In this document: piece by piece, positions 11,956-47,914 of the stretch
Position numbering within the stretch: the stretch's first letter is position 1
Layout: the number at the start of each line of letters is the position of its first letter
Source: Candidatus Woesearchaeota archaeon
Lineage (GTDB): Archaea; Nanobdellota; Nanobdellia; Woesearchaeales; GW2011-AR15
NCBI GenBank assembly: GCA_016935095.1
Contig: JAFGRO010000076.1
Coordinates: 15,030 to 79,029 of the forward strand
Direction: 5' to 3'
DNA length: 64,000 nt
Notes under the pieces: model-generated
What the model was told of the DNA's origin: nothing
Database searches by the model: none
Seen by the model: only the letters and a program-made list of their open reading frames with translations
Translations under genes and position numbers: made by a program

Positions 11956-12216
11956 ATGGTTGAATTGTGTAAAAGCATAGAAGACTATTATGATACTATT
12001 TCTACGAATGTAAAGCTCTACAGGAAAAAAAGAACAGTCGGAGAGATAGATGTTCTTGCAAAAAAAGGCAAGTTCTTTGACATATTTGAGGTTAAGTGTT
12101 CTCATAGAATAACAAAAGCAAGAAAACAAAAGAAAAAGTTTCTCAGGCACGCGCATATTAATATCAGAAATATTTGGTTTTATTGCGGGGCAACTGCTGA
12201 GATGGTGCTGTTGTAG
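11956..12216 (+). CDS. YraN/UPF0102-like PD-(D/E)xK nuclease-fold protein
   Basis: ...YRKKRTVGEIDVLAKKGKFFDIFEVKCSHR matches the GEIDlIa...vFVEVKtR core of the UPF0102 family. Codon usage is atypical. Confidence 0.4.
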   Translation: MVELCKSIEDYYDTISTNVKLYRKKRTVGEIDVLAKKGKFFDIFEVKCSHRITKARKQKKKFLRHAHINIRNIWFYCGATAEMVLL

Positions 12217-12236
12217 AAATGTTTTTATAGTTAGAT

Positions 12237-12758
12237 TTGTATGCTCATAATATGTTTGATATCGACTTATTTATTATTTTAATTGAATTTTTTGCCGCAA
12301 TTGTCCCTTTAATAGCTGAATTAGTAATTCTTCCAACAAATATAAAACAGTATCAAGGAATGGACAAACAAGCATATGAATCTAGATTTAGAATTTGTTA
12401 TCAAATGGTTTTCTTCAATTTACTCATTCTTTCATTTTTACTAAAATTTATCAATAAAATTAGTCCAATCTTATTTGAACATGCATTAGGTAATTTATTG
12501 GTTTTATCCTATTTTATTTTTACTTTATCTTATATTTTGACTAAATATAAATTTGATAAAAATCTAAAAATTGGCATGTTTTATTTTGATAGTAAATTTG
12601 GAGGAAAAAGTTATTTTTTATTATTAACTTCTCCAATGTTACTTTTTTTTATTGGGCTGGTAGATTTGGCTATTGATAGAGAAATTGCCTTTGTGTTTTC
12701 GTTCTCCACACTTGCAATGATGTTTTTATTTAATTATCTTCAGAAAAGAAAACTGTAA
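12237..12758 (+). CDS. Hypothetical multi-pass membrane protein (atypical A/T-ending codon usage)
   Basis: 173 aa, 4-5 predicted TM helices. Confidence 0.4.
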   Translation: MYAHNMFDIDLFIILIEFFAAIVPLIAELVILPTNIKQYQGMDKQAYESRFRICYQMVFFNLLILSFLLKFINKISPILFEHALGNLLVLSYFIFTLSYILTKYKFDKNLKIGMFYFDSKFGGKSYFLLLTSPMLLFFIGLVDLAIDREIAFVFSFSTLAMMFLFNYLQKRKL

Positions 12759-12765
12759 TTATAGT

Positions 12766-14595
12766 CTATCCAACCAATTTCCTCACAATCTCAACAATCT
12801 TCTTCCCAGGAGCTTTTCCTCTTAATTCTTTCATTACAATTCCAATCATTGCATTTAATGGAGCTCCTTTATTAGAATCAATGATTTTATTAATCTCTTT
12901 TTCAAGCTCTTTTTCATCCATAACTTTGTATTTAGAATAATCTACTTTGTTTCCTTTTGCCAATTCAACAAGAATCTCAAGAACAGCGTCTTTGCTTATC
13001 TCTTTATTATTCAGTTTTTCAAAGACTTCATCCACATAATCCAGGATATCAATTTCAAGGTTATATCTTTTCTTTATTTCTTTTGGTATTTCAATAATTG
13101 AGCTTGCTATTATCTTTGAGTCAATGTTTTTGTATTTTTTAACAAATACATTGATATCAATTCCTTTTTTCATTAATTCCTTTACAATATGTTCATCAAC
13201 TTTAAACTCGTTCTTTAACCTGCCAATCTTATCAGTAAGCAATTCAGGAATATCAACTCTTTTTAATAATTCTTTTGTAATAGGAACCATAGGAACATCA
13301 GTCTCAGGATACATCCTGTGTGATCCTGGCAAAGGCCTTGCATAGCTTGATGTTGCATTCTCATGGTTTGGGATGCGTGTTTCTTCAGGTATGCCTTTTA
13401 AGCAATATAGAGCTCTTTCATAAACAGCATCAATTGCTTTTTCTGCTATTTTTTCATTTTCAGCAATAATAAGAATCAAATCATTTTTTTTAGCTTTTAA
13501 TTCTTTTTTTAAGTTATCAAATTCTTTTTCTAATTGGTATTTTTTAATATCTTCATCAGTATGTATCATGCCTTTTGTGCCGTATGCTTTTGCATATTCA
13601 GAAAGCTCTCTGCCAAATGTCTTTCCATGACAGACTTCTTTTTTCAACAATCCTGAAAAATTTGGCAATAGAAGAGCATACACTTTACCTTTATTTTTTA
13701 TTATTTTTGAAATAATTTGATTTTTTGTTTTCTTAAATATTCCAGTAATCTCTCTTGAAGTTTTAGAGAATTTTTTTAACCCTCTTTTTTCCAATTCTTT
13801 TTTAATTTCAATTAAATTAAATTGCCTTAAGACTTCATTTTCAATTAGTTTGGTTAAAGTCTTTAAATCCTGCCAGCCTTTTACCTCGATCCTTGCTCCT
13901 CCTTTTATAGAGACATTTACATCCTGCCTTATTGTACCGATGCCTCTTTTCACATTAAAGCTTCTGAGAATTGTTCCGATTTCAAGAGCAGTCTCTTTAG
14001 CATGCTGGGGATTTTTAATAGTAGCGTCTGTCCCTATTTCCAATAAAGGAATCCCTTGCCTTGAAAGAGAATAAGATACATAATTTCCTTGCTTTTTTTC
14101 AATCTTACATGCATCTTCTTCAAGATTTAGCTGAGTAACTTTGACTTTGCTTTTAGGCAGATAGCTCTTATCAGATTCCATTCCAATTAAAATTGTTCTC
14201 TGGAATCCAGAACATGCAGAGCCGTCTGTTACTGTTTTTCTCATAACACATAAAGTATCAGGGACTTTTAGTTTTATCAATTTAGCAAATCCAAGAGCAA
14301 TGTTCATTGCATCTTTATTTACCGGATGAGGTGGCTCAGAATCAGTATCAACAAGACATACTTCATTTTCATATCCATGATAAATAAATTCCCTGTCGCG
14401 AAAATGCTCATATTGAGCTGCTTCATCAACTTCTCCTGTTTCTCCTGCAACAGCCCTTAGTTTTCTTTTTATTTCACAGGTCTGGTTTTTCTCATTTAAA
14501 GAAGAAGAGCACTCGCAGAAGAGTTTTTTAGTTGAAAGTTCCTGATGAATCTCAATTCCACACTTAAATCCTAATTCTTTGTAATTTAATTCCAT
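12766..14595 (-). CDS. gatE: Glutamyl-tRNA(Gln) amidotransferase subunit E (archaeal GatE)
   Basis: N-terminus MELNYKELGFKCGIEIHQELSTKKLFCEC is the archaeal GatE signature. 609 aa. Confidence 0.85.
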   Translation of the reverse strand: MELNYKELGFKCGIEIHQELSTKKLFCECSSSLNEKNQTCEIKRKLRAVAGETGEVDEAAQYEHFRDREFIYHGYENEVCLVDTDSEPPHPVNKDAMNIALGFAKLIKLKVPDTLCVMRKTVTDGSACSGFQRTILIGMESDKSYLPKSKVKVTQLNLEEDACKIEKKQGNYVSYSLSRQGIPLLEIGTDATIKNPQHAKETALEIGTILRSFNVKRGIGTIRQDVNVSIKGGARIEVKGWQDLKTLTKLIENEVLRQFNLIEIKKELEKRGLKKFSKTSREITGIFKKTKNQIISKIIKNKGKVYALLLPNFSGLLKKEVCHGKTFGRELSEYAKAYGTKGMIHTDEDIKKYQLEKEFDNLKKELKAKKNDLILIIAENEKIAEKAIDAVYERALYCLKGIPEETRIPNHENATSSYARPLPGSHRMYPETDVPMVPITKELLKRVDIPELLTDKIGRLKNEFKVDEHIVKELMKKGIDINVFVKKYKNIDSKIIASSIIEIPKEIKKRYNLEIDILDYVDEVFEKLNNKEISKDAVLEILVELAKGNKVDYSKYKVMDEKELEKEINKIIDSNKGAPLNAMIGIVMKELRGKAPGKKIVEIVRKLVG

Positions 14596-14728
14596 TTTTT
14601 ATTTAATTGGAAAGATATATTAATTTAAAAGTTTTCTATTTAAGAATGCAATCCTTGATAATCTGGGTTGAAAATTTTTCAAAAATCCAAATAAATAAAT
14701 ACAAGAAACAAATTCTTTAATAATATGG

Positions 14729-15376
14729 GTGATTCAAATGAAAATTTTTTTAGATACAGCTGAACTAGACGAAATAAAAAAATACATTGAGTTAATTGAC
14801 GGTGTTACAACAAATCCTACTTTAGTGATGAAGTCAGAGAGAAACTTTGAGCAGGTCTGTAAAGATATTATTAAAAAAGTTAAAGGACCGGTGAGCGTTG
14901 AAACTGTAAGCGAATCAGAAGAGATGATGATAAAAGAAGCAATAGAATTTGCAAAATGGGGAAAAAATGTTGTGGTAAAAATCCCGATGACACATGAGGG
15001 GCTCAAAGCAGTAAAGGAGCTTTCAAAAAAAGGAGTAAAGACAAACGTGACTCTTGTTTTTTCAGCAAATCAGGCCTTATTAGCTGCAAAAGCAGGTGCA
15101 ACCTACGTAAGCCCTTTTGTCGGAAGATTGGATGATCAGGGCATGGATGGAATGCAATTGGTTGCAGAAATCCTTGATATTTTTGAAAATTATGAATTCC
15201 CTACAGAAGTTATTGTTGCCTCTGTCAGAAGCCCGGAGCATGTGAAAGCAGCAGCATTGCTTGGAGCACATATAGCTACTGTACCTCCTCAAATAATGGA
15301 AAAACTCTTTAAACATTCCAGGACAGACGAGGGAATGAGGAAATTTATGGAAGACTGGGAGAAAGTAAGTAAGTAA
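14729..15376 (+). CDS. tal: Transaldolase / fructose-6-phosphate aldolase (Tal/Fsa/MipB family)
   Basis: [15 protein letters not shown]...GVTTNPTL...VKIPMT motifs. The true start is probably the internal MKIF at 14738. Confidence 0.8.
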
Positions 15377-15506
15377 TTTATATTAATTTAAAAACAAACC
15401 CGCATTTTTTACATTCTGAATAAAAATAATTTTTACTGTAATTAATCTTAATACTGTTACATCTAGGACAGTGTTCCTCTTTTTTTTCATAGACTTGTGT
15501 TGTCAT

Positions 15507-16838: not shown

Positions 16839-16990
16839 TTTAATCCACTCCCCTTAATTATATTTACTAAGTTTTTTTATTAATATTTAAGATTTAAGTT
16901 TTTTTATTTAAAATTCGTTTAATTAATTAATAAAAAAATTAACAAATGTTTAATAAAAGCAGAAAAAGATTCAGTTTATTAAATGAATGT

Positions 16991-18945: not shown

Positions 18946-19425
18946 ATGATACCCAGAAGAGTTGGTTTTAGACAATGGTTATTAGTAGGGGTACTGGGTG
19001 TGGGACTAATTGTAGGTACTACTAAGCTTTATTATCCTATTAGAAATCAAAAATTAGCTGAATTAGAAGCTCAATGCGCCGCATCTGCTGGTCACTATGA
19101 AGGACGAGTTTATTCAGAAATTAGAGGAGATTCTGGACAAATAAGATTAGGTTTGGAAGGAGTAAGGTATCCTTTAGAGCTTTCTGCAAAAGATCTTGAC
19201 ATCATAGTAGAAGAGGCTAATACTGCTGTTCCAGGTTTTGTACCTTATCTAGAAGGCCATTATGTTTCTATTGACGGAGCCTGTTCAGTTCCAGATACAT
19301 CCGGAGTTTATGTGACTGTTGATAGAATGGTTTTTAATCCAGGTGATACTTTTACAGTGGAATGTAATAGAGTTTTAGGAAACCCGTTAAAAGCATATGA
19401 ATGTACTCAAATTATACAAGAATAA
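18946..19425 (+). CDS. Hypothetical membrane-anchored protein, compositionally atypical (Gly/Val-rich; A/T-ending codon dialect)
   Basis: N-terminal TM helix, no recognised domain. Synonymous codon choice (tta, caa, gga, aga) differs from flanking genes. Confidence 0.35.
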   Translation: MIPRRVGFRQWLLVGVLGVGLIVGTTKLYYPIRNQKLAELEAQCAASAGHYEGRVYSEIRGDSGQIRLGLEGVRYPLELSAKDLDIIVEEANTAVPGFVPYLEGHYVSIDGACSVPDTSGVYVTVDRMVFNPGDTFTVECNRVLGNPLKAYECTQIIQE

Positions 19426-29854: not shown

Positions 29855-30331
29855 ATGAACAACACCAAATTAGCAATGGTAGTAAGTGTTGCTGCTTATT
29901 TTCTTTTAAACAGTAGACAATCTGGAAGCCAGACATTAGAAGAACTAACTGGAATTGATCCTGAAAATTTAGAAAGATTTGATACCTGGACTGGAGAAGA
30001 TAGAAGTGAAATTACTCAAGTTATGTATAAAGATGGTTCAGAAAGACTCTATATGTCTGATGCCCTAGGGCAAAGAGTTGTTTTAGAAAGAAAGCCATTT
30101 TCTCATTCATATGAGGTTACGCCTGCTACTTTGCTTAATGAATCTTTTGAAGGACAAGGAGTGGATAGTCAAGGTTTACAATTATTTGCACAATTAGTCG
30201 GTGTAGGAAAAGCTTATGAAAAAATGAGAAAGCCACAACAGATTTATGATCAACCAAATTTCACTATATTAGATGGAGATTCCGGTCCGAGTTATAAAGG
30301 TCCTTATCCCTATGCTGCTGCAGATTGCTAA
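29855..30331 (+). CDS. Hypothetical membrane-anchored protein, compositionally atypical (Gln/Gly-rich)
   Basis: N-terminal TM. A/T-ending codon dialect that differs from neighbours. Confidence 0.35.
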   Translation: MNNTKLAMVVSVAAYFLLNSRQSGSQTLEELTGIDPENLERFDTWTGEDRSEITQVMYKDGSERLYMSDALGQRVVLERKPFSHSYEVTPATLLNESFEGQGVDSQGLQLFAQLVGVGKAYEKMRKPQQIYDQPNFTILDGDSGPSYKGPYPYAAADC

Positions 30332-30948
30332 ATTTCGTTATATACTTTTTTTATCTCTTCAATGCTTCTCAGTAAACTATACTTAGTCTCGGGATGCTCT
30401 TTTTCCAGAACATCTAAGCATTCATTTATCAGAGATTTTTCTTTTTTCTGTTTTTTATACTTAAATTTCTTAATATCAGCAAACTTCCTGCTTTCAGAAT
30501 CAGTTACATTCAATAATAGTTTAATATATAATTTTTTATCAAGTTTATAATGACCAAGATATTTTGGTTTTTTATTATTGAAAAAACAATATAAAAAATA
30601 TTCACATTCATCATCAAGATTCCATGGAATAATAATTTTATTTGCATTTGTTTTAATCTTTTTTCCAATTTTATAATGTGATTTTTTAATGCTTATTTCA
30701 CAAGGCAGATTTTTTAGTGTGCCCTTTAATAGATAAACTGAATTTTTGCTGTTGTAAGAACCATCATCAATTATCAAAATCTTATCATTTTTTTTAATTA
30801 CTCTTGTTATCCTTAATTCTTTTCTTATACGCTTCTGGATCACTTCTGTAAAACAATTTTTACAAAAATAATTTGTGCTTATTTTTATACAGGATTTTTT
30901 ATTGCATTTTAAGCATTTCATTTTGTTACTACTTTCAAATACTATCAA
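30328..30948 (-). CDS. Hypothetical protein with N-terminal Cys4 zinc ribbon
   Basis: CLKCNKKSCIKISTNYFCKNCF. The remainder resembles a degenerate PP-loop-like fold (ILIIDDGSYNS) but this is uncertain. Confidence 0.3.
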   Translation of the reverse strand: MIVFESSNKMKCLKCNKKSCIKISTNYFCKNCFTEVIQKRIRKELRITRVIKKNDKILIIDDGSYNSKNSVYLLKGTLKNLPCEISIKKSHYKIGKKIKTNANKIIIPWNLDDECEYFLYCFFNNKKPKYLGHYKLDKKLYIKLLLNVTDSESRKFADIKKFKYKKQKKEKSLINECLDVLEKEHPETKYSLLRSIEEIKKVYNEI

Positions 30949-33529: not shown

Positions 33530-35761
33530 TTATTTTTTATTATTAAAATCTTCTTTCAAAGGGCCATCTCTTAGTCTTTCAGTATATCTGCATCTTGGAA
33601 ATTCGGAGCATCCAAGAAATTGCCCGTAAACACTTTTTCTGACAACAAGAATTCCTTTTTTGCATTTAGGGCATTCTTTTTCAACTTTGCCGTTTTTTAT
33701 TTCCTCTGCTTCTTTTTTTACTTCTTTGTCGATAATTTTTTTTGTTTTGCACTTGGGATTAAAGCAGACAACCTGCTTTTTCTTGTTAATGATCTGGATT
33801 AAAGGAAAGCCGCATTTTTCACATTTTTTGTCTGTTGGTTTAATTTTGCCGTGTTCAGGAATAGAGAATATTGTTTTGCATTTCGGATATGCATCACATG
33901 CAATAAACCTCTGCTTTGTTTTTCTTGAATGTTTAACAACAAGTTTGCCTTTTTTACAATTCACGCATATGCCGATTTCAGTTGTCATTGCTTCCTTGTA
34001 CGCTTCTTTTAATTCATTACCAATTTTGGTTTCTTTTATCTTGAAATCATCTAAGATTGCTCTCAGCTCGGATTTGGCCTTGTTAATCACTGTTTCCGGC
34101 TTGATTTTCTCTTTTCTGATTTTTTCCATTTCTTCTTCAAAATAACGGGTAAGCTCTTCTTCAACAATTCTTGGAGAATGTTTTTTCAGGACTCTTATTG
34201 TATGTATTCCCAGTTCAGTTGCCTCTATTGATTTTTCCTGGACGTACTCCCTTTGATATAATGAATCAATGATCTGTGCACGTGTAGATTTAGTTCCGAG
34301 GTTGCGTTTTTCAAGTTCTTTAATTAAGGAAGCCTGTGAATATCTTTTAGGAGGTTCAGTCTCTTTGTCATGTTTGATGATATCCTTAACTTTTACTGTT
34401 TCTCCTGTATTTAATTCAGGAAATTCTTCCTCTTTTAATCTTACATATGGCTCATATAAAACATACCATCCTTTTTCTGTTGTATGAGTGCCTTTTGCAA
34501 TGAATTTCTCTGAATTTACATCTATTACAATGCTTATTGTCTCTCTTTTGGCCCAGTCTCCAAAAGTAGCAAAAAATCTTTTTACAATTAGATCATAAAT
34601 CTTTTTATTTTGAGGGTTAAACTTGAATGAATCAAAACCTGTTGGGTAAATTGCAGGGTGAGCAGGATCAGTCTTATTGCCCTCATTGGGCTTTAAATAA
34701 TTTTTTTTTGATAATATTTCCACTAATTTAAGATAATCTTTATTTTGTTTTCCCAGACTATTTAATATCTTTTTAAACCCTATCTTTGCAGGAAGTTTCT
34801 GGGAGCTTGTTCTCGGATAAGAGATTAACCCGTTTAAATAGAGCTCCTGTGCAATATCAAGTGTTCTTTTTGGAGTAAATCCAAAAAGCCTATGGGCTTC
34901 AATCTGCAATGTTGTCAAATCAAATGGAAATGGCGGAGGATGTTTAGTTTCTCTTTTTTCAATATCTTTTATAGTTCCGTCATGGCCTTTGACTTTTTTC
35001 AATACGTCTTTGCATTCTTTTTCATCCCAGAACTTATCTTTCTCATGCCATGCGTTTATATTGGATTTTTTTACTTTTCCAATTAATTCCAGCTGCCAGT
35101 ATTTTTTAGGGACAAATTTTCTGATTTCAAGTTCTTTTTCTACAATAATCTTTAATGCGGGTCCCTGCACTCTTCCTGATGACAGGGTCTTGTATATTTT
35201 TGATTTTCTTAATGCTAATGTAAGTGCCCTGCTTAAATTAATTCCGTATAACCAGTCTAATATATGCCTGGCTTCACCGGCATAAGCCTGTCCCCAGTCC
35301 AGTGATTTCTGTTTTTTGCTGTAAGATTCAATCAGATCAGGTTTTGTAAGGGTTGAGAATTTCATTCTAGAAGCGTCTTTTTGATTACATGCATATCTAA
35401 TTATATTCAATCCTATGGTTTCACCCTCAATGTCGAAATCTGTGGCAACTGTAAATGAACTAACCTCTTTACTGAGTTTTTTTATTACATTAAGATATTT
35501 CTTTGAGAAACTTGAGTTTTTATCTACTTCTGCAGTAGGTTTCCATTCAACATTGAAAGAAGGATATTTAAAAGATTTTTTTTTTTCGGCTATTGTGTAT
35601 AAATGACCAACTGCACAAGCTACAATAATATTTTTTTTATGATGTTTTAATTTATAGAATGGTACGCCACTTATATTTAATTTTCTTGGTTTATCATCTG
35701 CTAACGCATCAGCAACACGGTTACATGCACTTGGCTTTTCAGTGATTATTAATTCAGTCAT
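33530..35761 (-). CDS. topA: DNA topoisomerase I (type IA) with C-terminal zinc-ribbon repeats
   Basis: Toprim N-terminus (MTELIITEKPSA...), GYISYPRTSS-like active-site region (LISYPRTSSQKL), several C4 zinc ribbons at the C-terminus. Confidence 0.9.
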   Translation of the reverse strand: MTELIITEKPSACNRVADALADDKPRKLNISGVPFYKLKHHKKNIIVACAVGHLYTIAEKKKSFKYPSFNVEWKPTAEVDKNSSFSKKYLNVIKKLSKEVSSFTVATDFDIEGETIGLNIIRYACNQKDASRMKFSTLTKPDLIESYSKKQKSLDWGQAYAGEARHILDWLYGINLSRALTLALRKSKIYKTLSSGRVQGPALKIIVEKELEIRKFVPKKYWQLELIGKVKKSNINAWHEKDKFWDEKECKDVLKKVKGHDGTIKDIEKRETKHPPPFPFDLTTLQIEAHRLFGFTPKRTLDIAQELYLNGLISYPRTSSQKLPAKIGFKKILNSLGKQNKDYLKLVEILSKKNYLKPNEGNKTDPAHPAIYPTGFDSFKFNPQNKKIYDLIVKRFFATFGDWAKRETISIVIDVNSEKFIAKGTHTTEKGWYVLYEPYVRLKEEEFPELNTGETVKVKDIIKHDKETEPPKRYSQASLIKELEKRNLGTKSTRAQIIDSLYQREYVQEKSIEATELGIHTIRVLKKHSPRIVEEELTRYFEEEMEKIRKEKIKPETVINKAKSELRAILDDFKIKETKIGNELKEAYKEAMTTEIGICVNCKKGKLVVKHSRKTKQRFIACDAYPKCKTIFSIPEHGKIKPTDKKCEKCGFPLIQIINKKKQVVCFNPKCKTKKIIDKEVKKEAEEIKNGKVEKECPKCKKGILVVRKSVYGQFLGCSEFPRCRYTERLRDGPLKEDFNNKK

Positions 35762-36081: not shown

Positions 36082-37194
36082 ATGTATCCTATTAATTATA
36101 TTAAATTTGAAAACCTTTTACCAAAAAAATCAAGGTTAGGATACACTCTTTATATTAATTATTTACCTGATAAGTTATTTGTTAAATATAAGGCATTAGC
36201 AAGACAAGTAGAACATATCTTTCCTAAAGAATTGATACTTGATAATAACTTTTTTACAGCGCTTGGTCTGTCTACTGGAGATGGATTAAATAATCCTTCA
36301 ATTAGAAATACACACTACAACTTTGCTAATAGTAATTTTTATTTAGTTTATATTGTATATAATTGGCTTTTAAAATACTTTAATATTAATAAAAGGTCTT
36401 TTCAGTTTCAACTATTCCAAAAAAATAAAAATTTAGATTCTATAGTAAAGATTAGGAGTTTTTTTAATATTAATACTTCAAGAATAAAAGTCTATTATTC
36501 TAATAGGTATAAGGAAGATGTTTTAGTAATACAAATATCTAATCCTATTTTTCAATTATTATACTTAAAACTTTTTGATACATTAAAGCAAGAAATTCTT
36601 AAAAATGAAAATTATAGAAGATCTTTTCTTAAAGGACTTTTTGCAGCTGAAGGTCATGTTAAACACAGTATTTATGGTACTATAGAAAATCTTTCATTTG
36701 CTTTTAATCCTCATAATGAAATCGAATTGGCTCAATTTATTTTTGAGTGCTTTAATAGAGAGGGAATTGAATTTAAAATTAATGACAGTTTGATTTATAC
36801 TTGTGGTTATAATAATATGTTAAAAACATATTTACTAGGAATAATTCAATTACATATTAAAAAGAAAAATAAATTTTTGAGATTAATTAAAAATGCTAAC
36901 TATTTTTTGCATTTTAAAAAAAATAGTTTAGATCTTTTAAGAGACAAAAGTCAGTATGAACTAGCGAAAATATTGGGTTGTTCTCAATCAGGTATAAGTA
37001 AAATGTTGAAGAAGAATTATTTAAGTTATAAAAATATAAGAAAATTAGAAAACAAAGCATTAGTTAATCCAGAAAAACTTTTTAATAAAATTGATTTCAT
37101 TACTGTGTCAACTACCCATATTAGAGATAGCAAATGTATTGATTTTTTGAAGAAGGAGATTTTTTTAAATAGATTATCTCATAATAGTGAATAA
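36082..37194 (+). mobile_element. Free-standing double-motif LAGLIDADG homing endonuclease with C-terminal HTH
   Basis: Two LAGLIDADG-type motifs (LGLSTGDGLNN and LKGLFAAEGHV). C-terminal HTH (YELAKILGCSQSGISKMLKK). Very AT-rich with an A/T-ending codon dialect. GGAGGTGA SD upstream. Confidence 0.6.
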
Positions 37195-37728
37195 AAAAGG
37201 CCCTATATTCATGAACAGGATTATGTTTAACAGAACATTAGTAACTCCGAAACTCAGATTTTTTCCGATATCATAATTAAACACAAAATGATAAAATAAG
37301 AATACAAATGTGTTTTTTATTAATGTCAGGATTGTTCCGGAAACAAATAAACTGCTCACAGGAAAAAAAGGTGTAGCTATACATACAATAATGTTACCAA
37401 TTACCATGGGTATTAAGAAAGGAGAATAATAACCGTAAAATGCAGAGCTTAAGATTGTTCCGAATACAGCAATTACCATTCCGGCTTTGATTCCATATAA
37501 AAAAGTGCATAGGACAATTCCCAGGCTGAGAATCTCTATCTCAATCGGCAGCTGGAAGTTTTTTTTATAAGCAGATAACAAGACATTACCTACAATAAAA
37601 GCCGTAACAAAAATAGCAGCCTTAATCTGGTAATAGTATAGGATAAGCAGGGGCAACGTCAATAATCCAAGCAAAATATATAAGATATATCTCTTCTTGA
37701 ATCTGAATCTGGTTTTTTTATTTTTCAT
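37174..37728 (-). CDS. Hypothetical integral membrane protein (5-6 TM)
   Basis: Hydrophobic 184-aa ORF. Confidence 0.4.
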   Translation of the reverse strand: MKNKKTRFRFKKRYILYILLGLLTLPLLILYYYQIKAAIFVTAFIVGNVLLSAYKKNFQLPIEIEILSLGIVLCTFLYGIKAGMVIAVFGTILSSAFYGYYSPFLIPMVIGNIIVCIATPFFPVSSLFVSGTILTLIKNTFVFLFYHFVFNYDIGKNLSFGVTNVLLNIILFMNIGPFLFTIMR

Positions 37729-37805: not shown

Positions 37806-38798
37806 ATGGACCACATAATAAATAGAATAATTGAAAAGATTCATTCTGATGGAAAGGATTTTCCCTTATTAGATGGGAATTACAAAGCAGCTGAAATATC
37901 CCTCGGGAATTTTCATAAGATTCCCGCTATTAAATCAGCTAAGAAACTGATTTTTGTAGACGGTGGCAGCAGTGAACTATTTAAATCACCGAGCATTAGC
38001 TTGTTTTTCAACAGAATCTATTACACAATCTATCAGAACAATAAGAGAATAAAAAACAAAAAATACGAGTTTTATACTTTAATTTATACTTTAAATAAAA
38101 ATAATAAATTGTTTTTTAAAACAGAGCTTTTCGGGAATGAATTCGATTTTGCAGAGTTAGAATTTGATTCACAGGACAAGACCCTTTGTTTTGGAAAAAA
38201 CAGGGCAAATATCTCTGTATTGGGGGATGTAATAAGGAGATTTGCAGAATTAAAGATTGGCTCTTCAATAAAAGAAGAGGATTCAGTTTTAGTTATGGAC
38301 GGCACACTTGAATTAAAATACTCTTTTGAAGATGAATTTTTAAAAGAATTATTCAGCTCAGCTAAAATAATATGCGGATTATCAAAGACCTGCTCTTTAT
38401 TGACACAGGAAGGAGATTCACTGATTCCAAAACTTGTAAGAATTTCACCTTATGCTTCCTGGTATTATAATCCGGTTCTTACGAATAATTCGGAATTACT
38501 GCCAAATATCTACTTTGTTAAATTCAATAAAAATTCCAGTTATGTTTTCAGGTTTGATGTTCATAAAAATAAATTCATTGATGAAATACTCTCATCATTA
38601 AAAGAGAACAGCAAGGATCCTGTTTTTTTAGGATATCCCTATGGTTTGATTGAAGCAGATAAAATGGCGAGAATCTCTAATAAAGAAACTGAAAGATTAA
38701 AGATGCAGTTAAGAATAAAGCTTGGGAATAATCTGAAAAACACAGAGGATTATGCCAATACATTGAATGCACACGATGTTTTAGATAATATTGGGTAA
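37806..38798 (+). CDS. nurA: NurA-like 5'-3' nuclease (putative)
   Basis: NurA-domain-like motif order: LIFVDGGSS ... VLVMDGTLE ... GYPYGLIEADKMARI. Confidence 0.45.
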   Translation: MDHIINRIIEKIHSDGKDFPLLDGNYKAAEISLGNFHKIPAIKSAKKLIFVDGGSSELFKSPSISLFFNRIYYTIYQNNKRIKNKKYEFYTLIYTLNKNNKLFFKTELFGNEFDFAELEFDSQDKTLCFGKNRANISVLGDVIRRFAELKIGSSIKEEDSVLVMDGTLELKYSFEDEFLKELFSSAKIICGLSKTCSLLTQEGDSLIPKLVRISPYASWYYNPVLTNNSELLPNIYFVKFNKNSSYVFRFDVHKNKFIDEILSSLKENSKDPVFLGYPYGLIEADKMARISNKETERLKMQLRIKLGNNLKNTEDYANTLNAHDVLDNIG

Positions 38799-40492: not shown

Positions 40493-42475
40493 CTAATAAA
40501 CAATATCATATCTTAAGATATAGCATTCTCTCATATCTTTGATTGTGCAGAATTTAGATATGTTTTCTTTTATCCTGTCAATTGAGATTTTCCTGTTTAA
40601 TCTATTATTGTAATTAATTTCCACAAACTGTATCTTTTCAAAACAGGCATTATTTGATAAATGTGAAAAAATATATTCATCTGAGAGGGATATTTTATTG
40701 CCTGTTTTAACAAGGAGTTTTTTTTTTATTAGTCCTTCAATGATATTGCCTGCATTAAAGCTTAATTTTTTAATCAAGTCTTCCTCTTCAAAATTTTTGA
40801 ATTTAAACGCGGTATGCAGTACCCTGATCTCGTCTGAAGATAAGTTTTCCAGAGAAGGTAATTTTTTTGTTTTGAAATTATCTAAGTCTATAATAACATC
40901 ACCATTAATCATCTCTATCAATAAATTAAATTCATTTCTTTTTTCTGAGCATAAAATTAAATATCCCGGTATGAGTGTTGTCTCAATCCCTTTGATTTCT
41001 CTGTCAGACATAATCTTAAGGTCTTTTTTAGTTATTTTAGGCATAATCACAGGAAGAAGCTCTTTTTCATTGAACTCCTGGACCTTTTCAAAGAATTTTT
41101 CTTCATCTCGCTGCTCAAGAATATTTACAGCATGACCTCCATGCTTGGTTTTTCTTGGCCTGATGTTCACAAACAGGGGCATATCAACCACACCTGTAAT
41201 CAATGCAGTTCCTATTGGCAGGTTTTTAATTTCATTCTCAGATTCATTAGTTATGCCTTCAACAGAGTTTGCAATGCTTTTTAAGTCACTAGGGTTTGTG
41301 ACTTTGAGGATTATCTGTGTTGTGCACTGGGATAAGACAGATTTATCGACACGAGCAGGCCTCTGGGATATTATGCATAAGCCAAGGCCGAATTTTCTCC
41401 CTTCAGAAGCAACAGTCCTTAGGATCTTTGAGCATCTTGTCTCTCCGAAACTTCTTTCAGGGCAGTAGTTATGTGCCTCTTCAACAACACAGAAAAAAGG
41501 AGGGATTTTTTCTTTTTTCCTTAACTCAAATAAGTCTTTCATTAACTTGTAGACAATAATCTCCTGAACATCAGGTGAGATTCCTTTGAGATTTATAATC
41601 GTGCATTTTCCTAATTGGATAATCTCATTATATGGCAGGTAACTCTCTGTGAAAATATCAAGGTTGTTTAAATATTCTAAATTATTTATTATTGTCCATT
41701 TTGTGTTATTCTCTTCTTTTTCAAGCTCAAATAATACATTAGTGAAATTAATTACATCAAGGTGCTTTACTGCACTATATAACAATCCAAGCTGCGTATT
41801 AGTCAGTTTTCCTGGGATAAGATGTGTAATTTCAACAGGCGACAGATTATTGTTTAGTTTCAATGGTCTTAATTCAGGATTTGATTTTGAATCTCCGTAT
41901 TCATGAATATTTGTAAAGCCAAGCGGCTTTAAATCATATTTTGAAAGGATCTCTTTTTCCTCGATATTAGGGCTTTTCAAAGAAGAGTATTCTCCATGAG
42001 GATCTATTATAAGAAGAGGCACTTTCTTATCAATAATCTCCTCAATCAAAACACCCGAGGTATATGATTTTCCTGCTCCTGATTTTGCAAGGATTGCAAT
42101 ATGCTTTGTGAGAAGTTTTTTTAAATCCAGGATTACATCAATGTTCTTGCCGTCTAATCTGCCTATAAACGCCCCTTTTTCACAATCCTCCAGTTTTATG
42201 ACTGATTTTATAAATTCATCCTCTGCTTTTATGACTTCAGCATTCTGCTCAAACGGGATCCTTATCGGCTTTATTCTTCCCTTATCGTCTTTATAGCCGA
42301 TAACAATGCAGTTGGCAATATCTTTATCTGTGCGCTCAATTTCAATTACCTGGCATAAAACCCATTCATATACTTTATGCATTACCTGCACAAACTCAAA
42401 TTTCTTTGTTTCTTTTTCTACAAGGAATTTAAATTCCGTTGTTGTAATCCTGCCGAAGATTTTACCTAAAATCAT
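40493..42475 (-). CDS. herA: HerA-family (FtsK/HerA superfamily) hexameric ATPase with N-terminal HAS barrel and a ~170-aa C-terminal extension
   Basis: Walker A AILAKSGAGKSYTSG and Walker B FFCVVEEAHNY. The N-terminal beta-rich region precedes the ATPase core. Confidence 0.7.
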   Translation of the reverse strand: MILGKIFGRITTTEFKFLVEKETKKFEFVQVMHKVYEWVLCQVIEIERTDKDIANCIVIGYKDDKGRIKPIRIPFEQNAEVIKAEDEFIKSVIKLEDCEKGAFIGRLDGKNIDVILDLKKLLTKHIAILAKSGAGKSYTSGVLIEEIIDKKVPLLIIDPHGEYSSLKSPNIEEKEILSKYDLKPLGFTNIHEYGDSKSNPELRPLKLNNNLSPVEITHLIPGKLTNTQLGLLYSAVKHLDVINFTNVLFELEKEENNTKWTIINNLEYLNNLDIFTESYLPYNEIIQLGKCTIINLKGISPDVQEIIVYKLMKDLFELRKKEKIPPFFCVVEEAHNYCPERSFGETRCSKILRTVASEGRKFGLGLCIISQRPARVDKSVLSQCTTQIILKVTNPSDLKSIANSVEGITNESENEIKNLPIGTALITGVVDMPLFVNIRPRKTKHGGHAVNILEQRDEEKFFEKVQEFNEKELLPVIMPKITKKDLKIMSDREIKGIETTLIPGYLILCSEKRNEFNLLIEMINGDVIIDLDNFKTKKLPSLENLSSDEIRVLHTAFKFKNFEEEDLIKKLSFNAGNIIEGLIKKKLLVKTGNKISLSDEYIFSHLSNNACFEKIQFVEINYNNRLNRKISIDRIKENISKFCTIKDMRECYILRYDIVY

Positions 42476-42591: not shown

Positions 42592-42954
42592 TTAAGTATT
42601 AGATGACTTAGTTAGTTTTTCAACAACTGCTTTAAGAGTTTGATATGCTCTGAAAAATAATGTTCTACCACTAATAAAGTAGTCAGCAGCACCTTGTGCA
42701 TAAGGATTTCCAATTCTAAGAAACTGTTCAAAGGCAGTTCTTGACTTACTGAAATATTCAAGAATTTGAGAATATTGTTCATTGAAGGGCTCTTTTGATA
42801 AAGTCTCAATTGCAATTTGAAGATATCTATAAACTTGGTGTTTTATTTGTCCAAGATCAATATTAATCTGTGAACCTTTTATTGCATTTTCTAGAATTCT
42901 ATTAGCATTAAAACCTATTCTAAATAATTCTATAAGATCTTCTTCATCTCCCAT
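42592..42954 (-). CDS. Hypothetical helical protein (atypical A/T-ending codon dialect)
   Basis: 120-aa ORF upstream of herA on the same strand, 117-nt gap. No family recognised. Confidence 0.35.
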   Translation of the reverse strand: MGDEEDLIELFRIGFNANRILENAIKGSQINIDLGQIKHQVYRYLQIAIETLSKEPFNEQYSQILEYFSKSRTAFEQFLRIGNPYAQGAADYFISGRTLFFRAYQTLKAVVEKLTKSSNT

Positions 42955-43005
42955 TCTATTAGATTAATAATTATACATTATATTAATATTTTACTTTTAG
43001 TAATT

Positions 43006-43143
43006 GAGGAACAGCACTTCTTGCCCTTCATGTGTCAGATGATGTTCCTCAATGGCTCCTTTCACTCATTATAATGCAAGGGGCGCTTGGGGAACTTCTG
43101 GTTAAATATTTAAAGCAAATATTACATCTCCCCAAGCCTAAAA
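43006..43143 (+). repeat. Conserved ~135-nt GC-rich intergenic element, copy C of 3
   Basis: Same conserved blocks. Lies about 100 nt upstream of the presenilin-like gene on the same strand. Confidence 0.6.
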
Positions 43144-43245
43144 CTAAATTTTAAAAAAATTTGAATTAAGAAATGCCTGTCATATTGATTTTGATTAGAG
43201 ACTGAAAACAAAAATAATTTAAATCTTTGCAATATAGGGATTCTT

Positions 43246-44169: not shown

Positions 44170-45132
44170 TATATTTTCAATGACCATGATATTATCCCTG
44201 ATTCTTTTAATGTTAGGGTTGCCTTTTTTAAGGGCAAGTTTGAGGAATTTTAATGCAGCTGAATAATGCCTGTACATGAATAATATATTTGCAAGATTGT
44301 TATATCCCGCGGCAGAGATTCTACAGGCTTTTGCAAGTTTCTTATATATATCATAAGCTTTGTTGAATTCTCTGGCTTTTATATGAGCTTCTGCCATGCC
44401 TTCAAGGTTCTTATCCGGCTCAAAATTGAGCTGAACAGCTTTCTGGAAATATTCAACTGCTTTTTTATAATCTTTTTTATATTTCAAATTTACAGTGGCA
44501 GCTATTGCATAAATTCTTCCGGAAGGGTTTTTTTTAAGCTCTTTTTCTGCAATCTCAAGATATTTAAGTTGCCTGTTAATGAGTGATTTTTTTTCATAGT
44601 AATGGTGTATCGGAATATCTGAAACATCATATTTTTTAACAGAACTGTCAACAACTTCATGGACAACGCCTGAAAATTTTATCCCTTTATTATTCCTGAA
44701 TAATCTTATAATGGGATTTTTTACATATCCTTTGTAATTCCTGCAATAAGGATTATTATCAGCAGGTGTCCAGTTTGCCTGGGAGCTGTCATTAGTATAA
44801 TTCCTCTGTATAAGAAAAAACGCATCCTGTTTTGCATTATTAATTAATCCTATAACCTTTTCCATATCTGCAAGGACTTCATCAGCATCTAATACAAGAA
44901 TCCAGTCTTTAGTAGCTTTTGACAATGAAAAATTCCTTGCTTTGGAAAAATCATATTCCCATATAAAATCAAAAACATTATCTGTAAATTTTCCTGCAAT
45001 TTCCTTTGTCCTGTCTTTTGAGCCGGTGTCAACAATAATAATCTCATCTGCATGGTCTTTAACATGATTTAAACAATCTTCCAGAAACTCCTCTTCATCT
45101 TTTACAATCATGCACAGGGATAATGATGGCAT
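44122..45132 (-). CDS. Family 2 glycosyltransferase with C-terminal TPR repeats
   Basis: N-terminus SLCMIVKDEEEFLEDCLNHV...IIVDTGSKDRT (GT2, SpsA-like). TPR-like helical repeats at the C-terminus. Confidence 0.65.
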   Translation of the reverse strand: MPSLSLCMIVKDEEEFLEDCLNHVKDHADEIIIVDTGSKDRTKEIAGKFTDNVFDFIWEYDFSKARNFSLSKATKDWILVLDADEVLADMEKVIGLINNAKQDAFFLIQRNYTNDSSQANWTPADNNPYCRNYKGYVKNPIIRLFRNNKGIKFSGVVHEVVDSSVKKYDVSDIPIHHYYEKKSLINRQLKYLEIAEKELKKNPSGRIYAIAATVNLKYKKDYKKAVEYFQKAVQLNFEPDKNLEGMAEAHIKAREFNKAYDIYKKLAKACRISAAGYNNLANILFMYRHYSAALKFLKLALKKGNPNIKRIRDNIMVIENILNKKNNPVSKQAAGS

Positions 45133-45170
45133 GATTTTAATAAAAATATTTTAGAATTATAAATTTTAGC

Positions 45171-46184
45171 TTAAGCAACCGCTACCAGATACAATGCCTG
45201 GGACCAGCCAAGCGGTGTATTCTTGTTCGAAATTTTAGAACCGCCGTAATATAATTCAGGAATCTCGCATTTCCAGTTCATGCACTCATGTGTCTTGTTA
45301 ATATAGTAACGATATTTTTCTTCATTTCTCAAATCCCTGTAAATTTTAGCTAACCAGATAAAACCAAAGCACCATTCTGCCTCTTTATCCTGGTTTTTAT
45401 AATAATAATCATTAAAATACCTTATAATGCCTTTTTTCCTGACTAATTTCTCTTCAACATTTTTTAGGATTAAAGCCCTCTGCTGTACAGTAACTATATC
45501 GAAAGGATAAATCAGCGAGAGCAGTGCAAGATCAACATCTTTTGTTTTGCTTTCCTTAGGGAGCAAAGTATTTAGTGCTGTTTCACCTTTTTTTATAAGG
45601 CTGTCGGGAACATTCACAAGTCCTGTTACAGCTTTTAAACCAGCTAAACAGGCCCCTATTGAAGACGCATGGACCTCTTCTTCATTTTCCCAGATTCCAT
45701 TGTCAGGGTCATGCCAATATTCTATACTCTCTAGATATTTTACAAGCTTTTGCAGGATTCTTAAATCATCTAAGTCCCTGAACACAATAATCTTTTCCCT
45801 AAATAAAGTCCCGACCATAAACAGAAATGCGCCGACTGCATCATTTTGCTTATTGCCCCACACTTCATAGAACTCATTAAACGTATGAGGGCAATACCTG
45901 GCATGTATATACTTGTAAGCGGCATCCGGCTTTTCTTTTATAGCCCAGTCAATCTTATACTCGTGCTTTAAAAGGACATCAAATAGTGCATAATATGTTT
46001 TTTTTAATGATTTAATATCTTTTGCAGCCATTAAGCCGAGACTTTCATAAATATTGTCACGTATCCAGGCCTTGTTATAGCCTGTTTTTACTCTTTTTTT
46101 AGAAGCCCCGAACAGCCCGCTTGGATACTGCAGGCTCTTTAAAATCCTCTTAGAGAGTGTTTTTGATAATAGTTTTTTGATCAT
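45171..46184 (-). CDS. Glycoside hydrolase family 15-like (glucoamylase-related) protein
   Basis: (alpha/alpha)6-barrel-like. Conserved YNKAWIRDN motif typical of GH15. Confidence 0.5.
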   Translation of the reverse strand: MIKKLLSKTLSKRILKSLQYPSGLFGASKKRVKTGYNKAWIRDNIYESLGLMAAKDIKSLKKTYYALFDVLLKHEYKIDWAIKEKPDAAYKYIHARYCPHTFNEFYEVWGNKQNDAVGAFLFMVGTLFREKIIVFRDLDDLRILQKLVKYLESIEYWHDPDNGIWENEEEVHASSIGACLAGLKAVTGLVNVPDSLIKKGETALNTLLPKESKTKDVDLALLSLIYPFDIVTVQQRALILKNVEEKLVRKKGIIRYFNDYYYKNQDKEAEWCFGFIWLAKIYRDLRNEEKYRYYINKTHECMNWKCEIPELYYGGSKISNKNTPLGWSQALYLVAVA

Positions 46185-46300
46185 TATATTTCCTTGTCTA
46201 ATTAAATACTCCTTAAAAGTAGTAAGAGTATATAAATCTTTCGTTTTGTAGTTATTAAACAGTAGTAAAAATAGAAAGATTTATATAGTAAATTTATATC

Positions 46301-47914
46301 ATGTCTCCAATGACAGCACTTTCCGCTACATATAATGTAGATCTAACTAAATATAATGCTTTTCTATTAGAAAGATTAAAAAGTGAATTCCGGGCACGTT
46401 TATTACCAGAATCAACTGGAAGAAGACGAGTTTACCGAGATGGAGACCAACCTTGTGATTTATCAGAAGCACTTTATAATGATAGGCAAATTTGTTTACA
46501 GGGTGATCCTGGTTCTGGAAAAACTATGGCATTATTAAATGAAGGAATTAGAATTGTACAAGGAGAAGAAAGAAGTGAATATGGATTAACAACCCTTCTT
46601 TTAATGGAATTACATAGTTTAAGTACTGGATTGGATTTTTCAGCTCCTTATGAATTCTTTACAGCTTATTTACAAGGAATTGCACAAAAACTAGGTTTAT
46701 CAGATGACTTCCCTCAACAAGTGTATCAAGATCCTGGTACTGTTATTACACTTGATGGTCTAGATGAAATTGCTGATCCACAAATAAGAGAAAAAGTAAT
46801 ACAAAGCATCAATGAAGCCAAAGCAGCAGCAATTGCATCAAATGGAAAGTTGCCACAAATAATTGAAGTAGCAACTCGACCTTGGGTAACTGTTGAAGGT
46901 TTTATACCTTATGCCTTAGAACCATTAACAGAAGTACAAATGGCACAAATTTTTGTAGGTGAGTTAAATGCATATTTTGATAGTATTTATGGTGAGGATG
47001 GATTGAAAGGAAAAGCTAGAGAAACTCAAATCAGGCAAAGAACTGATGATTTTCTCATGTATCTTTCACAAAGATCCTGGAGTCATATATTAAGAAATCC
47101 ATCATATTTGAGATATGCAGTACATCATCAAAATCCATTACCAGGAACATTTGGAGAATTTCTTGAAGCAGCAACTGATGGTTTTTTAATAGGTATTCAA
47201 GCAAGAAGAGATTTAGTGGAAGAATTAAATGTAGTTGTAGATAGACATCATCAACGACTTGGACAACATATATCTGATATGATTCCAGTATTAAGAGAAA
47301 TGGCATGGGTAGCACATACAGAAAAAAGTCGAGCTTTACCTTTAGATAAAATATTATCTATAGAAAGGTGGGATCCAAATGGTAGCTATTCAAATTCACT
47401 TTTATCTCAATTACCTACTGAAAGAAAAGAACAAATGCTTGATAAAATTGCGGAGAAATCACCTTTTTTAGCTCGCTATGAAGCAGAAGGAATTACTACT
47501 AAACATTATTTTTTTACACATCTAGGATTACAAGAATTTTTAGCTGGACAAGCACTTGCAGATAGAATAAATGAAGGGAAAATATCTCTTGATGAAGTAG
47601 ACAATATGCTTGATAATTCTTGGTGGAGACAACCTGTCCTTTATTCTTTTTCTAGTTTAAACTGGAATCAGGCAAATGCATTAGCTGAAAAAGTAATACA
47701 GAGACAGGATAGATCTTTAATGGCTGATGCTTATCATATGGTACAGGGAAAAGTACTTCTACATTACTTAGAAGCTTTTGAAGCAGCAAATAGTGAATTA
47801 CAGACAGAGACTACAATTGATGAGCAAGAGCTAAGGGCAGAATTAAAAAAGGCTGAGGGATCATCTTCTCAGAAACAAAAGAGAGGAAGATTAGGTTTTT
47901 TGGAAAAAAAATGA
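46301..47914 (+). CDS. NACHT-type STAND NTPase (short, 537 aa; no obvious effector or repeat sensor domain)
   Basis: Walker A GDPGSGKTMALL and NACHT-style Walker B VITLDGLDEIAD. Distinct A/T-ending codon dialect (tta, caa, gga, aga, gaa). Confidence 0.6.
   Translation: MSPMTALSATYNVDLTKYNAFLLERLKSEFRARLLPESTGRRRVYRDGDQPCDLSEALYNDRQICLQGDPGSGKTMALLNEGIRIVQGEERSEYGLTTLLLMELHSLSTGLDFSAPYEFFTAYLQGIAQKLGLSDDFPQQVYQDPGTVITLDGLDEIADPQIREKVIQSINEAKAAAIASNGKLPQIIEVATRPWVTVEGFIPYALEPLTEVQMAQIFVGELNAYFDSIYGEDGLKGKARETQIRQRTDDFLMYLSQRSWSHILRNPSYLRYAVHHQNPLPGTFGEFLEAATDGFLIGIQARRDLVEELNVVVDRHHQRLGQHISDMIPVLREMAWVAHTEKSRALPLDKILSIERWDPNGSYSNSLLSQLPTERKEQMLDKIAEKSPFLARYEAEGITTKHYFFTHLGLQEFLAGQALADRINEGKISLDEVDNMLDNSWWRQPVLYSFSSLNWNQANALAEKVIQRQDRSLMADAYHMVQGKVLLHYLEAFEAANSELQTETTIDEQELRAELKKAEGSSSQKQKRGRLGFLEKK

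Follow-up and report, generated by a model that had tools for sequence, protein, structure and literature searches.

What are six genes doing among the housekeeping genes of an archaeon when they spell their proteins with a codon set of their own, and where did that codon set come from? The question is raised by a stretch of 64,000 nucleotides (the window) from contig JAFGRO010000076.1, part of a metagenome-assembled genome (MAG) of Candidatus Woesearchaeota. A first-pass annotation, made from the DNA letters alone, had proposed that several scattered open reading frames (ORFs) in the window favor codons ending in A or T, and that they share an external source. We confirmed that six ORFs use a separate A/T-ending codon set, which we call the dialect; by their start coordinates they are genes 12252, 18946, 29855, 36082, 42592 and 46301. 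There is nothing exotic about the dialect, which is the usual codon usage of Woesearchaeota with low GC. In the reading that we find somewhat easier to accept than to doubt, the six are accessory genes of the flexible genome that came from an AT-rich DPANN gene pool and have not yet ameliorated.

The window has a GC content of 32.8% and is archaeal by its ribosomal protein L18e; its proteins match those of a Ca. Woesearchaeota MAG with JXB41 locus tags, on a contig of 88.9 kb. Our gene set comprised 63 non-overlapping ORFs, each of at least 80 amino acids. The majority class, which we call native, is made up of core housekeeping genes by Pfam: the DnaG-type Toprim protein, TGT, GatD/GatE, AspRS and a LeuRS-type synthetase, and also glutamine synthetase, CDC48, TopA, HerA, NurA, Hef, RIO1, deoxyhypusine synthase and RpoD, with the ribosomal proteins S9, L13, L18e, S11, S4 and S13. 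Relatives were compared as labeled loci (L002, L007, L088 and others), and TBLASTN searches covered ~175 related loci. The closest relative found is L088, whose HerA is 71% identical to that of the window.

We scored each gene by its GC content at third codon positions (GC3), as a z-score corrected for amino acid composition and set against a leave-one-out background. The dialect genes are the six lowest of the 63, with z-scores of −9.8 for 46301, −5.5 for 36082, −4.1 for 18946, −4.0 for 42592, −3.9 for 29855 and −3.3 for 12252 (12237 when counted from the start of its longest ORF); the next gene is at −2.6. Their uncorrected GC3 is 0.12–0.19, against ~0.24–0.38 for most other genes, and at synonymous third positions (GC3s) all six fall within 0.10–0.15. 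A parametric bootstrap under homogeneous codon usage predicts 0.01 genes at z ≤ −3.27, where 6 were observed, and on a scale that is robust to overdispersion the six run from −2.6 to −7.1, compared to about −2.1 to +2.2 for native genes. Codon usage per gene is bimodal, as the idea of a second codon class supposes: correspondence analysis followed by a Gaussian mixture favors two components (Bayesian information criterion of 128.2, versus 134.5 for one), and the minor component of this unsupervised clustering consists of exactly the dialect six. The leave-one-out log-likelihood ratio (LLR), in which a codon model built from the other five genes is compared to the host model, is above zero for all six and below zero for every other gene.

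Most of the codon shifts named in the first-pass annotation are real. From native to dialect genes, the share of CAG within its family drops from 63% to 20%, GGC from 26% to 2%, CTG from 16% to 2% and AGG from 34% to 12%, while TTA rises from 35% to 54% and AGA from 53% to 77%. Others are not: AAA/AAG usage is the same in both classes (p = 0.79), as is CTT, and GAA/GAG is only weakly different (p = 0.007). The description of A/T-ending usage as almost exclusive was also too strong–for example, CAA makes up 80%. We found additional shifts from ACA to ACT and from AGC to AGT, and a rise of CGA from 1% to 8%. Tetranucleotide frequencies separate the same genes: taken together, the six have a correlation of r = 0.18 with host genes, compared to 0.62 (0.46–0.74) for size-matched native controls, and 0 of 200 controls were that low. 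By codon position the six form two subtypes. Genes 18946, 29855, 42592 and 46301 are GC-rich at positions 1 and 2 and AT-rich at position 3, and genes 12252 and 36082 are AT-rich at all three positions. No further dialect ORFs were found among the small or unassigned ORFs of the window, and no partial-gene dialect segments, such as inteins, score above the flagged genes (the best other 60-codon windows, in 30328–30948 and 6849–7988, have an LLR of ~9). The dialect ORFs have strong three-base periodicity (GC1 > GC2 >> GC3). All six are singletons in 90% clusters, and all six lack an above-threshold Pfam match, versus 11 of 57 native genes (Fisher p = 1.8e-4).

The origin of the dialect becomes clearer when coding and intergenic sequences are considered together. 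At four-fold degenerate sites the dialect genes have 10.8% GC, and the spacers that flank them have 24.7% (range 20–29%). The host's native genes have 27.9% at such sites and its intergenic DNA has 26.5%. In low-GC Woesearchaeota relatives the corresponding values are 7–11% and 18–25%–for example, 9.5% and 23.1% in L088, 11.0% and 24.6% in L086, and 7.3% and 23.7% in L007. Because the pair of values for dialect genes and spacers equals the pair seen in relatives, the six look like pieces of low-GC Woesearchaeota lying in a lineage with a raised core GC3. In codon-model comparisons, low-GC3 archaea score about −0.82 log-likelihood units per codon on the six and some of the best fits come from the sister lineages L002, L007 and L088; the host's own model scores −0.915 and ranks 77th of 125. 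Fine features of codon choice match L088 as well (GGT ~40%, AGT ~27%, CGA ~8%), and the tetranucleotide correlation of the six with L088 (r = 0.50) is above that of all 200 native controls. A donor could not be named by codon-model fit, which does not discriminate: Asgard and Woesearchaeota loci with low GC3 fit equally well.

Comparison of host core genes to those of L088, L002, L007, L086 and L003 suggests that a rise in GC3 specific to coding sequence took place in the host lineage (CAG, CTG, GGC and AGG being favored), with no expression-linked gradient. Across 96 related loci with 1,302 genes, GC3 outliers at |z| > 4 are about as often negative (22) as positive (28), ~2% each, and a general negative asymmetry among related archaea was not found. 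The window is enriched ~5-fold for negative outliers (5 of 63, p = 0.004). In the other loci, the genes with negative outlier scores encode anchored surface proteins and LAGLIDADG, NACHT and TnpB-like proteins. One ORF in a relative with 42.5% GC (L089, 7930–8511, minus strand) encodes a membrane-anchored protein of 193 amino acids with GC1/2/3 of.49/.44/.25, where a GC3s of 0.52 would be expected (z = −8.4); this combination of a GC-rich protein and AT-rich third positions is that of the window's small dialect ORFs.

The six genes are spread over 36 kb with native genes in between, each of them a single gene, as had been described, and each next to core genes: beside GatE, between AspRS and GatD, between PLD and LonC, between TopA and NurA, beside HerA, and between GH15 and ROK. 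Synteny could be read in relatives at 12252, 18946, 29855 and 36082, and there the slots are either empty or otherwise filled, in agreement with the earlier proposal of insertions; at 42592 and 46301 synteny is not conserved in the available relatives. Three of the small proteins are membrane-anchored or secreted, and Gly/Val/Gln-rich composition was also borne out. Gene 12252 (12252–12758, plus strand) encodes a multi-pass membrane protein of 168 amino acids with several transmembrane-like segments, carries the cluster label 'hypothetical protein', and is AT-rich at all codon positions (GC3 0.19). Its longest ORF begins with TTG at 12237 and the NCBI start is at 12252. In L002 its slot contains an unrelated ORF of 240 amino acids. 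It lies near a tRNA-Trp gene, on the 5' side of the tRNA, and is not accompanied by repeats. The first-pass annotation had joined it to the sequence upstream as one ORF from 11956 to 12758; the dialect gene stands, and 11956–12216 (plus strand) is a separate ORF in another frame with a high GC3 (z = +2.0).

This separate ORF of 86 amino acids lies between the tRNA-Trp gene and the dialect gene. It forms a cluster of its own, its GC3 is at the native level or higher, and it is weakly similar to YraN/UPF0102 endonuclease-like proteins; it may be a truncated remnant. The tRNA-Trp gene itself (11624–11792, minus strand, anticodon CCA) has two long insertions, one of ~43 nt in the D-arm region and one of 64 nt in the anticodon loop. 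It was missed by ARAGORN and by Rfam at gathering filters, and was recovered by Rfam at permissive filters with 32.4 bits (gathering threshold 29). Its anticodon-loop intron has UGAUGA box-C-like motifs, recalling the tRNA-Trp intron of some Euryarchaeota, which holds a box C/D guide RNA.

Gene 18946 (18946–19425, plus strand; GC1/2/3 of.55/.41/.16) encodes an ORFan of 159 amino acids with an N-terminal transmembrane anchor, rich in Val (11.3%) and Gly (10.7%) relative to native proteins (5.6% each). Its sole match among 5.8 billion proteins is itself. It lies within the convergent junction of AspRS and GatD, and an independent assembly (L178) has the same arrangement. AspRS and GatD are convergent neighbors in many Woesearchaeota; the junction is empty, with gaps of 12–209 bp, in L015, L011, L003 and L065, holds a conserved anchored protein of ~480 amino acids in five relatives, and holds other ORFs in three. 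The junction behaves as a hot spot of gene turnover. The junction proteins of L004, L007, L008, L012 and L042 have ~470–690 amino acids and an N-terminal anchor; four of them are 29–38% identical to one another, and that of L004 is more distant. We ruled out that 18946 is a truncated positional homolog of this family (E ~0.6 by both BLASTP and hmmsearch), and it is unrelated to the junction ORFs of the other three relatives as well.

Gene 29855 (29855–30331, plus strand; GC1/2/3 of.51/.39/.18) encodes a Gln/Gly-rich protein of 158 amino acids with a short hydrophobic N-terminal segment (Gln 7%, versus 2.4% in native proteins). It belongs to a block of three genes–a DUF123/GIY-YIG gene, 29855, and the ORF that starts at 30328–that splits PLD from LonC; in L082, PLD, LonC and TopA are contiguous, with 80 bp from PLD to LonC. 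Gene 42592 (42592–42954, minus strand; GC1/2/3 of.44/.33/.12) encodes a soluble Gln-rich protein of 120 amino acids. It is 116 bp upstream of herA on the same strand and is present in an independent assembly (L001); no counterpart is found upstream of herA in L088. None of these four small ORFs has a match in Pfam, PADLOC, PHROGs or NCBIfam, and for 12252, 29855 and 42592 no homolog was found in our searches of 90% clusters, family libraries, IMG/VR and, by TBLASTN, the related loci.

The fourth gene along the window, 36082 (36082–37194, plus strand), has homologs that allow much more to be said. It has a GC content of 22.6% and a GC3 of 0.15, and it is divergent from topA, a native core gene for topoisomerase I (33530–35761, minus strand; Pfam Topoisom_bac, Toprim and Zn_ribbon_Top1; GC3s z = −0.27). 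Its LAGLIDADG identity had been proposed before and is now supported by motifs and by a structural model, as is the NACHT identity of 46301. The protein is a predicted free-standing double-motif LAGLIDADG nuclease with a C-terminal helix-turn-helix (HTH) domain. It has 45 homologs at 38–59% identity, and the motifs GDG, with catalytic D67, and AAEG, with catalytic E190, are invariant in 22 sequences; the nuclease is probably active. An AlphaFold2 (AF2) model with a predicted local distance difference test (pLDDT) score of 92.5 matches the bI3 maturase, I-DmoI and E-DreI, and more weakly WhiA. The match to Pfam LAGLIDADG_3 is below cutoff (18.1 versus 22.5 bits), and this domain is recorded for most homologs; PHROGs gave only weak matches (E 1.8e-4 to 8e-3) to HTH-regulator and HNH-endonuclease families, and NCBIfam one match far below cutoff.

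We found the LAGLIDADG-HTH gene at the 5' end of topA in 8 of 8 independent genomes (the window, L082, L085, L086, L168, L170, L172 and L173). The two genes are divergent or else run in the same direction, in which case their stop and start codons overlap, and the neighbor on the far side from topA differs each time. L088 lacks the LAGLIDADG-HTH gene, and there NurA lies 80 bp from TopA. In 7 of the 8 loci no gene is more AT-rich than this one, its GC3 z-scores running from −4.4 to −9.8 wherever the host's GC3 is above the floor, and the GC3 of the family follows that of the host (r = 0.90, slope 0.58). The distances among its homologs show only a weak coupling to those among the neighboring TopA proteins (Mantel r = 0.30, p = 0.11). 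Because it combines a fixed address at topA in eight genomes with GC3 depletion and a GC3 that tracks the host's, the gene has long been tied to topA at this specific site and did not arrive as a recent insertion at random. The topA gene is a possible homing target or regulatory partner, and the LAGLIDADG-HTH protein could be either a free-standing homing element on topA or a partner of topA that was domesticated, built like WhiA but with its catalytic residues retained.

Each of these two possibilities has a known counterpart. With I-DmoI of archaea, the bI3 maturase and free-standing homing endonuclease genes (HEGs), 36082 shares two LAGLIDADG motifs, invariant catalytic Asp and Glu residues and an I-DmoI/bI3-like fold, as well as AT-richness relative to the host, a fixed address beside a conserved gene, and presence or absence among relatives. 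The free-standing HEGs of phages are the ones that target an adjacent conserved gene. Unlike typical homing endonucleases, 36082 is outside any intron or intein and has an extra N-terminal beta domain and the C-terminal HTH; cleavage and mobility are predictions, and identities of 38–59%, together with many invariant residues, would be just as compatible with a function in the host. WhiA/DUF199 is a bacterial transcription factor made of a domesticated LAGLIDADG domain and a C-terminal HTH (PMC3240954, PMC3384342). Its double LAGLIDADG scaffold followed by an HTH and its conserved chromosomal location are shared by 36082, whose model also matches full-length WhiA (3hyi, E 2.6e-3), but 36082 is archaeal and linked to topA. 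WhiA has lost the catalytic acidic residues. Their invariance in the 36082 family, together with the lack of a match to any WhiA Pfam family, argues against membership of WhiA/DUF199.

Several features of the neighborhood deserve mention. In L082, TopA (3088–6939, minus strand) contains an intein of ~510 amino acids at about residues 527–1036, with Pfam Intein_splicing and LAGLIDADG_3 domains; the window's TopA has none. An origin of the free-standing LAGLIDADG gene from this intein was ruled out, as the two have no sequence similarity. The 3' end of the LAGLIDADG gene overlaps by 21 bp a Pfam-less singleton gene of 184 amino acids (37174–37728, minus strand; GC3 z = +2.5), which is absent at the corresponding position in L086 and L088. 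Further along, nurA (37806–38798) and herA (40493–42475) are not in an operon: a PfkB kinase gene lies between them on the strand opposite to herA. In L088, L089 and L090, each herA is followed on the same strand by an ORF of 301–328 amino acids, and the window has no such ORF. Many of PADLOC's HerA models match the window's HerA, probably just because they share an ATPase family. The left end of the window holds two T2SSF-domain (FlaJ/TadC-like) membrane genes in tandem (220–2058, plus strand), which probably belong to a locus for an archaeal type IV pilus or archaellum.

Gene 46301 (46301–47914, plus strand; GC1/2/3 of.51/.38/.13) is both the largest of the six and the strongest outlier. It lies between genes for GH15 and a ROK glucokinase and encodes a NACHT-only STAND NTPase of 537 amino acids, in which no sensor or effector domain was found beyond the NACHT module. 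Walker A (GxPGxGKT), Walker B (DGLDE), SRPW and FTHLGLQEFL (FTHxGxQE[FY]L) are invariant in its family. Its AF2 model (pLDDT 80) matches the NACHT domains of NOD2, NLRC4 and NLRP3 in Foldseek (E 3.6e-9, TM-score up to 0.58); Pfam NACHT is below the gathering score for 46301 (18.1 versus 26.7 bits) and is recorded for its homolog P0059. A full HMMER scan found five full-length relatives at 28–29% identity, those with names being from DPANN archaea. The homologs P0059 and P0057 are single genes in other housekeeping contexts (L10e/NOG1 and UvrD/LDH), and homologs of 46301 are GC3-depleted in their own hosts (z = −7.4, −8.9 and −9.0). Like other NACHT STAND NTPases (NLRs and bacterial NACHT/Avs proteins), 46301 has Walker A and B, the FxHxxxQE[FY]L motif, a modeled NBD-HD1-WHD-HD2 fold, a patchy distribution and single genes in varied contexts; it differs in having neither sensor repeats nor an effector, and its nearest kin are a small DPANN-specific family. 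Its identification as a known anti-phage defense system (Avs, bNACHT and the like) was rejected, as it matches no PADLOC model and has no domain beyond NACHT. Two genes from 46301 there is a metallo-beta-lactamase-fold protein (48913–49725, minus strand) with native codon usage, whose Pfam matches include Anti-Pycsar_Apyc1.

The reading that we lean towards is that the six ORFs are accessory genes of the flexible genome, each of which sits alone in a variable slot between core genes. They would have been acquired by horizontal transfer from an AT-richer DPANN gene pool, either from related archaea or from their unsampled mobile elements, probably at different times and from more than one source, and their synonymous sites would still be un-ameliorated toward host usage. 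Two of the six are of classic mobile or defense type: the LAGLIDADG-HTH nuclease, which in its tie to topA resembles a site-specific, free-standing homing element, and the NACHT-only NTPase. Both families are low in GC3 in every host examined. Several points weigh against it. No donor sequence was found, nor a close homolog in any genome, and we infer the transfer, with its direction and recency, from composition and synteny alone; the homing behavior of the LAGLIDADG gene and the functions of the four small ORFans are likewise inferred. In coding DNA, tetranucleotide frequencies are no independent test of what codon usage shows. Four of the six genes have a GC1 of.44–.55 and a GC2 of.33–.41, at or above the top of the range in low-GC relatives, so they fit poorly with a long evolution inside a genome of 27% GC. 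No integrase or transposase is nearby, and the flanks of the six have no att sites, target-site duplications or terminal repeats; the repeats that they do have are short, imperfect and AT-rich. The organism was seen in one sample only, by exact-match look-ups of flanking proteins. Lastly, the dependence of LAGLIDADG GC3 on host GC3 is equally expected of a long-term resident with a gene-specific offset. An integrated mobile element or genomic island is not a variant of transfer that we retain, since all six are singletons with no integrase, att site or duplications.

The rival that survives best has no donor at all. The six would be residents that escaped whatever force raised GC3 in this host, be it GC-biased gene conversion (gBGC) during recombination or selection on core genes, and, having no recombination partners or being only weakly selected, strain-specific genes such as these would sit at an AT-biased mutational equilibrium of ~10% four-fold GC. 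We regard this as possible but doubtful. It draws on the difference between the host and its relatives, which is mostly one of coding GC3 (27.9% versus 7–11%), intergenic GC being similar (26.5% versus 18–25%), and on the constant negative offset with which LAGLIDADG GC3, and likewise that of the NTPase family, tracks the host. The contrast between GC-rich first and second positions and AT-rich third positions in four of the six looks as if synonymous sites alone decay, and the absence of mobility hallmarks is what residents would show. Prokaryotic mutation is, to our knowledge, always biased towards AT, and the accessory part of a genome is richer in AT than the core. However, the six form a discrete cluster and not the tail of a continuum, GC3 outliers across the 96 loci are as often positive as negative, and ~11 unannotated genes, including the singletons at 11956–12216 and 37174–37728, have native or higher GC3, so being lineage-specific is insufficient to produce the dialect. 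The spacers beside dialect genes have 20–29% GC and not ~10%, a weak objection because relatives show the same contrast. We had first dropped a simpler version, relaxed selection toward the host's intergenic composition, because native four-fold GC is close to intergenic GC and dialect GC is far from it (27.9%, 26.5% and 10.8%); but since four-fold GC in relatives is far below intergenic GC, intergenic GC is no neutral proxy, and the idea is kept in its gBGC or core-selection form.

A second rival, that the dialect is selected as a codon-level control of expression, we consider improbable. Here A/T-ending codons that the host does not prefer would throttle or condition the translation of self-toxic or conditionally needed genes, such as those for the nuclease, the STAND NTPase and secreted factors. 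The LAGLIDADG and NACHT families are GC3-depleted in every host examined, across 28–60% identity, and the deficit is limited to the ORFs and absent from their flanks, both of which speak for this idea. But ribosomal-protein GC3 is average or low (0.165–0.32) and there is no expression-linked codon gradient, which rules out expression-linked codon bias; since ribosomal-protein GC3 is not raised, nothing indicates that G/C-ending codons are optimal for translation. In addition, no toxicity is known for the four small ORFans, the dialect equals the relatives' ordinary usage in detail, which is unexpected under selection for rarity, and the window has one tRNA only.

The single external source suggested in the first-pass annotation–a virus, a plasmid or the host of an episymbiont, contributing either the remnants of one element or repeated transfers–fares slightly worse still, and we do not expect it to be correct. 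The narrow GC3s range of the six and the success of a model from five genes in predicting the sixth would suit it, and when the comparison is conditioned on A/T-ending codons, four of the six rank 2–5 of 63. But the full set of conditioned ranks is 2, 3, 4, 5, 12 and 14, so that the shared signal is weak. The NTPase gene is neutral in this conditioned test, and at four-fold sites it prefers A whereas the other five prefer T (p = 0.0016); the six also fall into two subtypes of amino acid composition. No viral relatives of the six were found in IMG/VR, even with profile-derived pattern scans for the LAGLIDADG and NACHT families, although DPANN viruses are poorly sampled. No PHROGs phage structural or replication family matches any of the six, and five, all except 36082, have no PHROGs match at all; PADLOC has no match for any, and sequence searches against PDB were uninformative. 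Where relatives of the outlier proteins have names, they are DPANN archaea only. The LAGLIDADG locus is fixed at topA in eight genomes, and the codon fit is blind to the donor. An artefact, in the form of a chimeric MAG assembly or non-coding ORFs mistaken for genes, is hardly credible: the source is indeed a MAG and for four of the six our searches found no homolog, but each dialect gene has native genes on both sides in a single contig, a Logan assembly made independently from the same run has the same adjacencies around 18946, 42592 and 46301, three-base periodicity is strong, and two of the genes have confident known-fold models with intact catalytic motifs.

Transfer from an AT-rich DPANN pool would place the six genes among phenomena that are already familiar. 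Lawrence and Ochman reportedly set out the framework of amelioration for acquired genes, and Daubin and Ochman are said to have described AT-rich ORFans. In a survey of 119 genomes, 96% of prokaryotic ORFans were compositionally atypical and small, and 61% were outside clusters of atypical genes (PMC2718499); the AT-richness of ORFans is cited in the same survey (PMC2718499; Cortez, Forterre & Gribaldo 2009). The six share with atypical ORFans and acquired genes their shortness, AT-rich atypical composition, restriction to a lineage, variable slots and location mostly outside large islands; 18946 and 46301 share the scarcity of homologs too. They differ in that their composition is matched quantitatively to the coding and intergenic signature of sister lineages, that two families keep their GC3 deficit across several hosts, and that hallmarks of integrative elements are lacking.

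That accessory and ORFan genes are AT-rich is a known rule, of which this case is a clean and well-documented example; it is no new kind of system and leaves current concepts unchanged. Something newer we consider unlikely. The AT-rich third-position dialect would then be a heritable, selected property of certain DPANN families (NACHT-only NTPases, topA-linked LAGLIDADG-HTH nucleases and small surface ORFans), through codon throttling or tRNA-dependent conditional translation of self-toxic or defense proteins; or it would mark an undescribed route of DPANN gene exchange that puts single genes between core genes with neither integrases nor repeats; or the topA-linked LAGLIDADG-HTH protein would be a new archaeal analog of WhiA or a homing element on topoisomerase I. 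The weight of the finding could rise if the family-level persistence of AT-rich third positions, or the pairing of LAGLIDADG-HTH with topA, proved to be functional. Two by-products deserve note: a conserved LAGLIDADG-HTH/topA pair across Woesearchaeota, and a minimal NACHT-only NTPase family in DPANN archaea. Low GC3 in such genomes flags accessory genes without naming their donor. With these six genes the flexible part of a DPANN genome is unusually easy to see, in a dialect that looks foreign and is the native signature of sister lineages, and they show the extent of gene flux inside a poorly understood and probably symbiotic group.

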